Source: an uncultured Verrucomicrobiae bacterium (GTDB lineage Bacteria; Verrucomicrobiota; Verrucomicrobiia; Chthoniobacterales; UBA10450). Taken from it: a stretch of DNA of 64,000 bases. Both the position numbers and the translations under genes were made by a program. Below the pieces are notes generated by a model that saw only the letters and a program-made list of their open reading frames with translations, was not told the origin of the DNA and did no database searches. Below, in pieces: positions 60,881 to 64,000 of this stretch; the stretch's first letter is position 1; each line of letters opens with the position of its first letter. The stretch spans positions 1,720,365 through 1,784,364 of the forward strand of contig CAVWPA010000003.1 in NCBI GenBank assembly GCA_963756875.1, read 5' to 3'.

Positions 60881-61006
60881 GGCCCCAAAGCCCCGGACGC
60901 CAGCCCTTCACCGCTTCGCCGCTTTTGATCGTGCTCGTGCTCGTAATCGTAATCGCACAAAACGTAGTAGAGCCGGCCGCCGGGCCGTCCGCTTGTCTGT
61001 TCCTCA

Positions 61007-61072
61007 CTGTGGAGGCAGCCGTGTCGGCTGCGAAATCATGGGAGATTGCAGGCGGCACGCCTGCCGCTACAG
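61007..61072. repeat. GTAG-family REP doublet
   Basis: CTGTGGAGGCAG ... CTGCCGCTACAG; resembles the reverse complement of 24366-24437. Confidence 0.75.
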
Positions 61073-61252
61073 GGCCGTCCGCCTCCTAATTAACACGGGC
61101 CTTAAGGCCGGTGATCTTCCTCGCGATAAAACGTTAAGCCGTTTCAACGGCTTTCCTCTTGTAACGCTTTTAACGTTTCAACGACTTAACGCTTTTCCAA
61201 GTCAGTAAGTCGGAAATCTTAATCCGCGGCCATCCGTGTAATCCGTGGTTAA

Positions 61253-62260
61253 TTATTTCCAATGTTTCGCAATCAGCGCCTTGATAGCCGGCGTCTGCAA
61301 ACAGTAATTCTCTTTTTCGCGTTCGTTAGGCATTTCCGGAAACCATTTCCACCAGAACATCCCCGCGAGAAAAGGATGCTTCGCGGGGAGATTCAGAGCC
61401 GCATCGATACAGCGCAACTGAATTTCGGCGGCATGATCTCCACCCGTCTTAAAACCCCACGGCTCAGCCGCCGCCCGCGCGCTTTCGTTGTAGCCGATCT
61501 CCGTGAAGAGAAATTGCTTGCCGCCGTTCGCCTGCGAAAATTTCTCCAGCTCGGCGCAACGCTTCTCCCACGCGGCTGCGATCTCCGCCTCGCTCGGATC
61601 GACAGTCTTCGTAAGCGGGAAATAAGCGAGCACGCCGATGTAATCGACCGCGTCCCAGAATTTTACATTGGCATATTCGTTCCAGTTCGCGCCGTAAGTG
61701 ATTTTTCCATGATAAACGTTGCGGACCGCGGCGATAATTTTGCGCCAGCGATCCGCAAACTTCTCTGCGTGGGAAAACTCCAGGCCCACGCAAAAAATGG
61801 CCGCGCCGTGCGCCTCCGCGATTTTGGCCATCTCCACGATCCATGTTTGATAATCGCCAAAGAAATTGTCCCACCCGGTCTGCGTATCGAAGTTGATTTC
61901 ACCGCGCCACGAGAAATTCGATCCCCAGTAAGCGATGTGCGGGATGAGCATGACCGACAGCCCGCGCTCGCGCGCCCAATCGAGCGGGACCGTGATGTGG
62001 CGATAATTATCCGGGTTGCGAAACGTCACGTGCCCATCGTTCTCGATCCGCGCATAAGGATGAATGGCAACGCTGTTCGCACCTAGCGACTTCAATTCAT
62101 CAAGCGTCTGCGCCATCTCCGGTGTCTGCCACTCAATCCCCCAGGTCTGACACGAAACCGTCACCCCCTTAAAAAACACCGGCGTCTGAGCGTTCACGGT
62201 TGTCGATATCGTGACAAGCCCAACCAAAACCATAGCCGCGCGTTGAATCATCGTCCTCAC
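61253..62260 (-). CDS. Secreted GH113-like TIM-barrel glycoside hydrolase
   Basis: Signal peptide; PH..WRGEI, CVGLE, TYGANW, AYFPL, FTEIGY, FWWKW. Confidence 0.8.
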   Translation of the reverse strand: MRTMIQRAAMVLVGLVTISTTVNAQTPVFFKGVTVSCQTWGIEWQTPEMAQTLDELKSLGANSVAIHPYARIENDGHVTFRNPDNYRHITVPLDWARERGLSVMLIPHIAYWGSNFSWRGEINFDTQTGWDNFFGDYQTWIVEMAKIAEAHGAAIFCVGLEFSHAEKFADRWRKIIAAVRNVYHGKITYGANWNEYANVKFWDAVDYIGVLAYFPLTKTVDPSEAEIAAAWEKRCAELEKFSQANGGKQFLFTEIGYNESARAAAEPWGFKTGGDHAAEIQLRCIDAALNLPAKHPFLAGMFWWKWFPEMPNEREKENYCLQTPAIKALIAKHWK

Positions 62261-62478
62261 GGCTTGTTATTAAACTCCCATTCCATGGTGGGGGTCGACT
62301 ATTCCTCCTTACAACTAATGCGGCGACCCCGCCATCAAGCGTGAATCCCGTCCTGCTCGAACCGCTTGACCCCAGATCCCCCGATCTCCCGATCCCCCGA
62401 TCTTCCGCAGCCGAATCGTTTCTCCGCGAATTAGAAACTTGACTGCTTAAAGCAGTCAAGTTCGACTGGCGGGCTGTT

Positions 62479-62892
62479 ATGAAAACGGAGGCCAGCGTTT
62501 TGGATGTCTTGTTCCCGAGAGTGCGCGCGGAGATGCTGCGATTGCTGTTTACCTCAAAAGAAGGGCGGTATGTTCGCGAGCTATCGAATATGAGCGAGCT
62601 CGCCCTGTGCACAGTTCAGGACGAACTACGTAAACTCAGTGCGATCGGTCTTGTTACCAGTTGGACGGACGGCTTCCGTAAGTTTTACTGCGCTAACCCG
62701 AGTCACCCGCTTTTTTCCGAGCTTCTCCATATTGTCGAACTAGGTGCGCGGCTTCCCCGGGCAAAACATTCCGCGCTCGTTCGGCCCGGACGATCGCGAG
62801 GCCGGCGCAAGGCACGGCGGCGTGAGCCTTTTCCCTCTCGAAATTACCCGCCCCGCGGCATGAGCCTGTATCCGCGGGTCAGGCACACTTGA
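62479..62892 (+). CDS. Stand-alone winged helix-turn-helix protein with a basic tail
   Basis: LDVLFPRVRAEMLRLLF...YVRELS...VQDELRKL..IGLV...G.RKFY.AN..HPLFSEL resembles the HTH fused to MNT-type nucleotidyltransferases; Arg-rich C-terminus. Confidence 0.78.
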   Translation: MKTEASVLDVLFPRVRAEMLRLLFTSKEGRYVRELSNMSELALCTVQDELRKLSAIGLVTSWTDGFRKFYCANPSHPLFSELLHIVELGARLPRAKHSALVRPGRSRGRRKARRREPFPSRNYPPRGMSLYPRVRHT

Positions 62893-63302
62893 CTGCTTAA
62901 AGCAGTCAAGTGTGAGGGGCGTCGTCGGGCGTCGTCGGGCGAGAGACGAGAGACGAGAGACGAGAGGACGACAGGTGAGAGATCAAAGCCTGCTACGAAA
63001 TGCATAATTATTAACCATTAACTGCCGTGCGGAAGTATTGTGCCGTGAAATCTTGACTGCTTAAAGCAGTCAAGATTGCGATTGTGGAGGTCGAGGAGAA
63101 CGAGGAGAACGAGGAGAACGATGCACAATCGACCGATAATCATTAACCATTTAATCATTAATCATCACCCATTAACTGCCCGCTGAAGTATTGCGGCTCG
63201 AAAACTTGACTGCTTAAAGCAGTCAAGTTTGTGAAGTCTGTTTTGGAATTCTGCGCGCGGTATGGCCTGGTCGGTGGGTGGAGGTTGCCTCGGGACGGAG
63301 CA

Positions 63303-63464
63303 CTTAACGAGCGCATCCTTGATCAGATAGAATATGAAGAGAAAATTGTAGCGAAGATAACGGCCTGCCAGCCGCCGCGCCTCGCTCGCGACGCGAAAAA
63401 GCCAGGTGAGGCCGCGCCGCTGCATCCAGGCCGGCGCGTCTTTTTGGTCTCCGGCGTTGACTTC
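63303..63464 (-). pseudogene. Diverged duplicate of the 3' end of the WecG/TagA gene
   Basis: Reads EVNAGDQKDAPAWMQRRGLTWLFRVASEARRLAGRYLRYNFLFIFYLIKDALVK; no 5' part present. Confidence 0.88.
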
Positions 63465-63747
63465 GGCTCTCCGTTCGAACTTGACTGCTTAAAGCAGTCA
63501 AGTTTGCATGCTCACAGAAAGGGCATAGAAAAAGGGCAAGACCGCACCGTGGCGGATAATCAGTAACGATCACCGTTAGCCATAGTAGGATTCCAGACGG
63601 CGATGGGAGTCGAAAAAGTAAATGGGCTCGGCCGCCGCGTCGATATTCTTGCCAAGATCGAGCCCACGAGGAGCAAAAGGATTGGCCCGCCCCTGGAACT
63701 TGACTGCTTAAAGCAGTCAAGTTTGAGAGACGGCGTTGAAGGGCGGT

Positions 63748-64000
63748 TCAGCGGAATACTGTCTCGTTCGGGCGGTGGCGCTTAAAGAGCGCATCCTTAA
63801 TTAGATAAAATAGGAAAAGAAAGTTGTAGCGAAGATAACGGCCAGCCAGTCGCTGCGGCTCACTCGCCACACGAAAAAGCCAGGTCAACCCGCGTCGCTG
63901 CATCCACTCCGGGGCATCTTTTTTCGTTCCGGCGTTGACATCGAAAGCGAACCCAACCGCAAAGAGAATTCCGTGCTTGATCTGCGACTTGAAACGATGA
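63748..64000 (-). CDS. WecB/TagA/CpsF glycosyltransferase, 3' part; truncated by window end
   Basis: HRFKSQIKHGILFAVGFAFDVNAGTKKDAPEWMQRRGLTWLFRVASEPQRLAGRYLRYN...ETVFR*; missing from the ORF track. Confidence 0.9.
   Translation of the reverse strand, partial: HRFKSQIKHGILFAVGFAFDVNAGTKKDAPEWMQRRGLTWLFRVASEPQRLAGRYLRYNFLFLFYLIKDALFKRHRPNETVFR

Follow-up and report, generated by a model that had tools for sequence, protein, structure and literature searches.

The 64,000-nucleotide stretch analysed here (the window) ends contig C3 (CAVWPA010000003.1) of an uncultured Verrucomicrobiae bacterium, and close to that end it carries six identical copies of a 23-bp palindrome, CTTGACTGCTTAAAGCAGTCAAG, the first two of which bracket a gene for a 137-aa winged helix-turn-helix (wHTH) protein. 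Comparison between genomes argues that the link between the gene and the palindrome is real. With a probability of roughly 0.6 the two are read here as an autoregulated repressor-operator module whose operator has spread in the manner of a repetitive extragenic palindromic (REP) element, the whole forming a lineage-wide two-part system. The repeat census, the bracketing of the gene, the protein fold, the matching of protein and palindrome classes, the duplications and an insertion inside a gene were all obtained by computation, and from them we infer binding, autorepression and the arrival of solo palindromes by insertion.

The palindrome array and its gene

Exact matches to the 23-mer lie at 62438, 62888, 63052, 63205, 63480 and 63699 and nowhere else in the window, each with its central A on the + strand, and the number expected by chance is 0 (0/100 dinucleotide-preserving shuffles gave a match). 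Start-to-start distances are 450, 164, 153, 275 and 219 bp, leaving spacers of 427, 141, 130, 252 and 196 bp. An earlier reading of the letters alone (the sequence-only reading) had reported these positions, their common orientation, the absence of further copies from the window and the tight bracketing of the gene, with its ATG 18 nt past copy 1 and its TGA inside copy 2, and all of this was borne out. It had also excluded a CRISPR array on account of the long, uneven spacers, rightly so, as they range unequally from 130 to 427 bp and CRISPR arrays show regular spacing with spacers of about 26-72 bp. The parts of the array are as follows.

62438..62460, no strand: palindrome copy 1 (11+1+11), ending 18 nt before the wHTH start codon, a geometry kept in relatives
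62479..62892, + strand: 137-aa ArsR/SmtB-like winged-helix gene; residues about 1-95 predicted to be folded, basic C-terminal tail predicted to be disordered
62888..62910, no strand: palindrome copy 2, containing the TGA stop (62890-62892) of the wHTH gene
62911..63051, no strand: spacer 2, with microsatellites GGGCGTCGTC x2.5 and CGAGAGA x6; last ~45 nt related to the end of spacer 3
63052..63074, no strand: palindrome copy 3, exact 23-mer
63075..63204, no strand: spacer 3, with microsatellite CGAGGAGAA x3.3; diverged duplicate of the end of spacer 2
63205..63227, no strand: palindrome copy 4, exact 23-mer
63228..63479, - strand: spacer 4, diverged duplicate (82-83%) of the wecG 3' end and its downstream palindrome
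63480..63502, no strand: palindrome copy 5, exact 23-mer
63503..63698, no strand: spacer 5, unassigned, no second copy in the genome
63699..63721, no strand: palindrome copy 6, located downstream of wecG, 26 nt from its stop codon

The microsatellites and the gene fragment that had been noticed in the other intervals are both present. Microsatellite units in the array region measure 8, 10, 7 and 9 nt, and the fragment derives from the 3' end of wecG (63290-63465 against 63768-63943, 82% identity). Microsatellites at 62370-62407, 62917-62982 and 63092-63121 (units of 7-10 nt, 2.5-6 copies) adjoin three of the six palindromes.

A dispersed repeat of genome and family

The host genome (G000; 2.69 Mb in 3 contigs, 87.6% complete) holds 16 exact 23-mers and two further copies, with 1 and 3 mismatches respectively. 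Confined to this locus within the window, the 23-mer is not so within the genome, where 10 further exact and 2 near copies lie beyond the array. No other perfect hairpin with arms of 10 or more is as frequent in the genome: the palindrome has 17 copies and the next, GCGTCCGCCGCGGCGGACGC, which is unrelated to it, has 6. T occupies the first three positions outward of the 23-mer in 29, 30 and 21 of 36 flanks respectively, so that the unit is effectively 27-29 bp. No longer shared sequence was found around the copies, and no 9-mer is common to the flanks of three or more of them. Nearly all copies lie where the skew of G over C is positive on the + strand, and in 9 of 12 loci of this kind that strand bears A as the central base; the skew analysis gave no clear link of copies to origin or terminus.

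When up to two mismatches are allowed, the palindrome occurs in 12 of 24 further genomes from this family and in 0/16 genomes from other families of the order. By a degenerate pattern 68 of the 101 family genomes have variants, with copy numbers per genome ranging from 0 to 40, and the reversed-pattern control gave 0 in all. The variants are symmetric, the two arms changing jointly. Copy number runs from 0 to 31 within one genus, and in genome G107 31 of 33 matches have the same perfect GACGGCTT form. Homologs of the wHTH protein were detected in 41/101 family genomes, with as many as 5 places in a single genome, and 16 of the 59 matched stretches contain a stop codon; the host genome itself has no second copy (best other match E 0.116). 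A wider protein search returned 421 homologs about 135-145 aa long, most of them on contigs of very small size, with longer homologs numbering 2 among 429 candidates. The related loci are ascribed to soil Chthoniobacterales, Candidatus Udaeobacter and Spartobacteria. The sequence-only reading was ready to give up its proposal should the 23-mer prove to be scattered through the genome with no link to the wHTH family; scattered it is, but the link to the family is clear.

Matching of proteins and palindromes

Fifty loci around wHTH matches were compared, and the recognition helix was recognisable in 42 gene copies. A perfect family palindrome lies upstream in 32 of these 42 and downstream in 31, and a looser pattern places a palindrome-like site upstream in 40/42, one of them mis-registered. 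The predicted start codon falls 10-19 nt past the upstream palindrome in 22/40, and the palindrome-to-palindrome interval that holds the gene measures 398-481 bp (16 loci). For modules that stand in different genomic contexts, similarity sets in no more than a few bases from the outer edge of the upstream palindrome. The last residues of many homologs read ...LTA, ...STA or ...RRL, which corresponds to the left arm translated as far as the central TAA of the palindrome.

It is also clear that protein and half-site fall into corresponding classes. The residue concerned is residue 44, which precedes the invariant T-[VI]-Q motif in the recognition helix, and the classes are these.

Cys44: half-site GACTGCTT, 5/5 copies
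His44: half-site GACGGCTT, 7/7 copies, plus one in the other major clade
Gln44: half-site GACCGCTT, 6/6 copies
Arg44 with QEEL helix: half-site GACTGG[TA]T, 6/6 copies
Arg44 with IQDELK helix: half-site GAATGC..., one genus
Gly44: half-site GACCGGTT, 1 copy

Mapped onto a maximum-likelihood tree of all 42 gene copies, the half-site labels require 16 changes, where shuffled labels average 28.4 (0/200 shuffles as low), and the combination of His44 with GACGGCTT has at least 2 origins. A stronger point than this local matching is the genome-wide matching seen in G012, which carries Cys, His and Gly protein classes: 50 sites were counted and 42 listed, and 40 of the 42 belong to three classes that match the proteins (12, 9 and 19 sites), leaving one hybrid and one chance match. 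Similarly, G019 has His and Gln copies with palindromes of those two classes, and the host genome has one protein class and one palindrome class. The association of the 23-mer with wHTH homologs in relatives, whose co-occurrence the sequence-only reading had wished to see examined, is supported in that the gene is bracketed alike and the classes of protein and half-site agree. The same reading had left it open whether the palindrome was a binding or a recombination site for the protein or for an enzyme encoded elsewhere; bracketing and class matching make a binding site for the wHTH protein the likeliest reading, and use by a recombinase is not borne out.

The protein and its putative promoter

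Modelling of the host protein points to an ArsR/SmtB-like fold. The model (mean predicted local distance difference test score, pLDDT, 79.2; predicted template-modelling score 0.61) has the order H-H-H-H-wing-H followed by a disordered basic tail from about residue 95, and its best structural matches are NolR, SqrR, HlyU, CzrA and SmtB. In sequence the likeness is slight: a profile retrieves ArsR/SmtB-type chains weakly, and the matches to Pfam HTH_5 (14.0 against a cut-off of 22 bits), DUF7342 (18.9 against 31.6) and NCBIfam NF033788 (HTH_metalloreg; 23.9 against 55) are all sub-threshold. A homodimer modelled through residues 7-16 and 77-100, in the N-terminal and fifth helices, scored 0.56 where the best control reached 0.00; the mark applied to such scores is reached by 20/30 solved homodimers and 1/23 monomers. 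At least 97% of contacts recur from run to run, with a partner pLDDT of at least 86. A caveat that must be applied is that this dimer is a likeness, not proof, and may echo structures that the predictor already knew, since ArsR dimers have been solved.

After the basic tail, within the last ~15 residues, most homologs carry a conserved C-terminal [KN]-W-x-L-F-[ST], in which W128 and F131 are nearly invariant; the host protein has MSLYP at this position (residues 126-130). The motif resembles short partner-binding motifs such as the clamp-binding pentapeptide. One homolog gene, following mutL in G017 (contig C2; L134:2440-2520), has an in-frame 39-nt tandem duplication in the wing (SNGYQRFYRANRD twice).

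The left arm of copy 1 contains TTGACT (62439-62444), a -35-like hexamer. When the hexamer 16-18 nt past the palindrome was compared with TATAAT, the mean agreement was 3.6/6 on the gene side and 2.9/6 on the other side, and A2 together with T6 occurred in 9/40 on the gene side as against 2/40. The palindrome would also be able to serve in the outward direction.

62430..62459, - strand: putative outward promoter toward GH113, with -35 TTGACT in the right arm of copy 1, an 18-nt spacer and TCTAAT (62435-62430)

The consensus scanner made no call for this putative outward promoter. As RNA the palindrome forms a hairpin of -17 to -23 kcal/mol, with z-scores of -4 to -5.7 against shuffles. A T tract of the kind sought by the terminator scan is absent at all palindromes, and Rfam gave no match at E<=1 over 61000-64000.

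Solo copies

Comparison of loci suggests that the solo copies arrived by insertion. The gene for TrpA (tryptophan synthase alpha) at G000:C1:126098 (L066 about 1969-1991) has a 19-aa/57-nt in-frame insert that holds the palindrome (KLDCLKQSSLKAENHRATD region) and is absent from the 5 relatives compared, one of them flagged as unpublished; it lies in a variable loop and is without clean ends. Another copy stands in frame inside a 1378-aa open reading frame (ORF). The stop codons of DUF1003, CutA1 and amino-acid permease genes fall within palindromes, those of the convergent CutA1 and permease genes sharing the copy at G000:C2:73300 (1 mismatch). This last copy forms the middle of an inverted repeat that extends further, GCTGCCGCTCA...TGAGCGGCAGC. 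The remaining solo copies are found in intergenic regions, whether divergent, convergent or co-directional, and favour neither promoters nor gene ends. In one orthologous intergenic region G107 has one copy, G060 two and three congeners none; among these five congeners the region is too diverged to place the ends of an insertion.

A one-sided tag, CTCGTTAGA (CTCGTTA[GA]N), stands beside the foot of the palindrome at 39 sites in 13/101 genomes (control 2 hits) and spans several palindrome classes and genera. In the host genome the copies at C3:538770, 654610, 1063471, 1079952 and 1490370 carry it. On the other strand the tag reads TCTAAC, at the place where gene modules carry their -10-like hexamer.

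How the array grew

The sequence-only reading took the spacers for unrelated, palindrome-bounded cassettes captured at this locus, a view that has had to be abandoned: spacers 2 and 3, which share their last ~45 nt, are mutual copies, spacer 4 is a copy of the wecG 3' end, and no integrase or transposase was found in the 16 kb upstream or within 1.5 kb of 29 related loci. In other genomes spacers within an array are 72-97% alike, and between genomes only the gene-holding intervals match. Because spacers resemble those of their own array and not those of other genomes, local tandem duplication fits, and the sequences indicate that the spacers are local duplications, not captured cassettes. Arrays elsewhere contain up to about 16 copies over 6.3 kb and show repeated units of 113 nt, and in one case three gene modules are spaced exactly 400 nt apart. 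The duplicated spacers have diverged (82-83% identity here, 72-97% elsewhere) while the palindromes between them stayed identical, which implies either constraint or homogenisation. The idea that spacers are decayed wHTH genes was rejected, tblastn having matched the protein only in gene-holding intervals and never in the shorter spacers.

The proposed module and what weighs against it

The favoured system would consist of a ~140-aa ArsR/SmtB-like winged-helix protein of soil Chthoniobacterales-type Verrucomicrobiota and, as its cognate site, a perfect palindrome that measures 23 bp here, or effectively 27-29 bp if the A/T flanks are counted. The protein would sit on the palindrome as a homodimer, one monomer per arm, and residue 44, at the start of the recognition helix, would read base pair 7 of each arm. 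With the gene placed between two palindrome copies, the upstream copy would provide the -35 hexamer (TTGACN) of the gene's own promoter, the start codon following 10-19 nt on, and the downstream copy would provide the stop codon. Binding over its own -35 would therefore shut the gene off, giving autorepression of a probably near-leaderless mRNA. Further copies would have dispersed in a REP-like way, between genes in all orientations, over stops and in frame inside genes, and palindrome-bounded segments beside the gene would have been duplicated in tandem to give arrays such as that of the six window copies.

A number of observations weigh against this scheme. Since gene and flanking palindromes are linked, the class matching may partly be co-inheritance, and only His44 with G7 recurs in two clades. 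One and the same half-site can go with differing residues in the two clades: Cys or Arg in the case of GACTGCTT, Gln or Ser in that of GACCGCTT. Palindromes are present in 31/60 genomes without a detected wHTH, and five palindrome-rich genomes (31, 17, 20, 13 and 11 copies; 95, 97, 71, 81 and 90% complete respectively) have no wHTH even by the family profile. That absence is uncertain because such genes lie in assembly-breaking repeats; either the gene is in unassembled repeats in these genomes, or palindromes may persist, and perhaps spread, without it, in which case another agent may be spreading them. The -10-like hexamer of the host gene is poor (TCGACT), and the consensus scanner found no promoter or terminator at any palindrome in the host. 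Around the solo copies neither a target-site duplication nor a longer conserved element was seen; since target duplications were not seen, insertion is deduced from comparison and not from element ends.

Alternative explanations

A more radical version of the scheme is possible, though it is given considerably less credence than the favoured repressor-operator module. In it the ~450-bp unit of a DNA-binding protein gene and its own two sites would be a selfish, transposase-free module that seeds solo sites and arrays, is split into mutually exclusive specificity classes like immunity groups, and spreads by way of the protein recruiting host machinery, e.g. through the C-terminal [KN]-W-x-L-F.

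It is rather unlikely that the protein is an ordinary transcription factor with a regulon, the palindromes being operators kept for neighbouring genes and the arrays accidents of slippage, with nothing mobile. The ArsR/SmtB repressor fold, the overlap of the upstream palindrome with a promoter-like layout and the several solo copies 25-150 nt upstream of genes would all suit such a regulon. Regulon operators are not expected to be as uniform as these palindromes, 16 of 18 host copies being identical over 23 bp and 31/33 in G107 having one form, or to lie inside trpA and a large ORF, over stop codons and between convergent genes. The swing in copy number from 0 to 31 in one genus also speaks against it, as does a gene that is patchy (41/101 genomes), multi-copy, interrupted by a stop codon in 16/59 stretches and surrounded by different genomic neighbours from genus to genus.

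About equally doubtful is a classical REP system, in which the hairpin would be copied as single-stranded DNA by a Y1 (HUH) transposase elsewhere in the genome, of the kind of the REP-associated tyrosine transposases (RAYTs), and the wHTH protein would be a passenger or a secondary binder. Six PF01797 (Y1_Tnp) matches are present in the host genome, the hairpin is stable at -17 to -23 kcal/mol as RNA, both arms change together, and palindrome-rich genomes without the wHTH exist; the tag CTCGTTA[GA]N moreover recalls the GTAG tag of REPs (PMC3733652). Every Y1_Tnp match, however, is at least ~47 kb from any palindrome copy. The tracking of palindrome class by residue 44 and the matching triples of G012 are left unexplained, neither a GTAG nor a CGTC tag is present, and the flanks are A/T symmetric. 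Two of the Y1_Tnp (IS200-like) genes, L020:1417-1943 (C3:1631734) and L021:1352-1878 (C2:26294), are flanked by GTYTTCGGCG...CGCCGAARAC hairpins, and because this is a different, GC-rich hairpin at least two Y1 genes seem to have repeats of their own. Those two genes with their GC-rich hairpins look like a separate REPtron-like arrangement.

An array of cassettes like those of integrons or Xer/dif modules, with the palindrome as the site of a recombinase, is highly improbable. Identical sites with dissimilar spacers and a compact, cassette-like wHTH interval recall one, and the site with its A/T flanks can be read as 11-7-11, which would resemble tyrosine-recombinase core sites. Against this, and in agreement with what the sequence-only reading had reported, Pfam scans found no integrase, transposase or cas gene in 10 ORFs of at least 150 aa at 47.7-60.7 kb (16 kb upstream; for cas genes the search covered the upstream side, the other side ending with the contig), nor an integrase or transposase within 1.5 kb of 29 related loci (E<=1e-6). 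Over the same two scopes there is no IntI gene adjoining an array. The spacers are local duplicates and not foreign genes, and only the wHTH interval holds a gene. Integron attC sites are imperfect palindromes of 57-141 bp that end gene cassettes, unlike this perfect 23-bp palindrome.

Less probable still is an element acting at the RNA level, in which the palindromes would be bidirectional terminators or insulators, or small RNA genes each ending in a hairpin. The stability of the hairpins (z-scores of -4 to -5.7), the many copies just past stop codons and the A/T flanks around the stem would suit it, but no qualifying T tract and no Rfam match (E<=1) were found, some copies are situated in divergent promoter regions or within genes, and the protein-class matching would go unexplained. 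An assembly artefact can practically be dismissed, since although the array stops 279 nt before the end of contig C3 the same architecture is found in dozens of independently assembled genomes.

Comparison with known systems

The resemblance to REPs and REPtrons, a REPtron being a RAYT gene flanked by REPs (PMC3733652), is considerable. These too have short palindromes that are mostly intergenic, sometimes in genes, locally clustered and variable in copy number among close relatives; the associated repeat stands on either side of one gene, and genomes have several classes, every class with a gene copy of its own. A dispersed, mainly extragenic repeat is indeed what was found here, with 18 copies in the host and up to 40-50 in relatives. 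The differences are that the flanked gene encodes a ~140-aa ArsR-like DNA-binding protein without an HUH/Y1 catalytic domain, and that the Y1 genes of the host lie elsewhere, beside other hairpins. In addition, the palindrome is perfect, lacks the GTAG/CGTC tag found at one end of REPs (PMC3733652) and has modest copy numbers (0-50).

Autoregulated repressors of the ArsR/SmtB type (NolR, SmtB, CzrA, HlyU) bind inverted repeats over their own promoters. The present protein is like them in its fold, in its predicted helix-1/helix-5 dimer and in the palindromic site over the -35 region of its own gene; it is unlike them in scoring below curated cut-offs and in having a long basic tail, and the operator occurs up to 50 times per genome, flanks the gene on both sides and forms arrays. 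In the neisserial intergenic mosaic elements 20-bp dRS3 inverted repeats separate repeat units of 50-150 bp, and here likewise one short palindrome separates variable intergenic units of about 100-300 bp. The dRS3 arrays are not known to have a dedicated embedded binding-protein gene, dRS3 serving as a phage transposase target, whereas in the present array a cognate wHTH gene is embedded. A replication terminator was also considered, the replication terminator protein of Bacillus being a small winged-helix dimer with dispersed sites, and was dropped in view of the perfectly symmetric sites, the patchy multi-copy gene and the copies inside genes.

The wHTH protein matches positions 3-87 of the 201 of the PADLOC profile M05A (E 1.8e-16). 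PDC-M05, a PADLOC candidate, consists of the nucleotidyltransferase M05A and a HEPN protein (PMC12988326). The likeness is at the level of the domain only, as the present gene has no nucleotidyltransferase part and no HEPN neighbour, its neighbours being GH113 and wecG.

The locus and its history

The neighbouring genes of the array are the following.

61253..62260, - strand: GH113 glycoside hydrolase gene
63748..64000, - strand: wecG 3' end (WecG/TagA/CpsF glycosyltransferase), truncated by the contig end

The window end (64000) is the end of contig C3 and falls inside wecG, 279 nt past copy 6, so that the array may extend further; the first ~184 codons of wecG are absent from the assembly. 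From a sequencing run in which no more than 7% of sampled words were present, one contig of 259 nt was obtained, covering the start of GH113, and none over the array.

The usual gene order in the family is mutL, GH113 on the opposite strand and wecG. In the relative G005 the wecG stop almost abuts the GH113 start, and because these nearly touch there, the ~1.49 kb that separate the two genes here, with the gene and six palindromes, are on this comparison an insertion. The interval had been proposed for comparison between strains as a place where whole cassettes might be gained or lost; the gain of ~1.49 kb relative to G005 was found, but the spacers proved to be duplicates and not captured cassettes. 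In G017, whose MutL is 90% identical, the module sits directly behind mutL, and four genomes from a different genus have it between mutL and wecG. The neighbourhood of the module is common to these relatives, its exact position is not. The wecG gene is inverted here relative to one genus in which mutL, wHTH, wecG and an epimerase are all on one strand.

Implications

Bacterial dispersed palindromic repeats are known either with tyrosine transposases (REP/RAYT) or without any known partner, and a literature search found no description of a wHTH-linked repeat of this sort. In the present case the partner of the repeat family is a small DNA-binding protein, and protein and site co-vary across genera. 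Should the selfish-module version be true, it would be a new way for a bacterial repeat family to propagate. If binding is confirmed, the classes would form a natural set of orthogonal repressor-operator pairs and would provide a handle on how repeats spread and keep their identity without a visible transposase. Confirmed binding would also explain assembly breaks in abundant soil Verrucomicrobiota (Chthoniobacterales, Candidatus Udaeobacter), in which most homologs are found on very short contigs.

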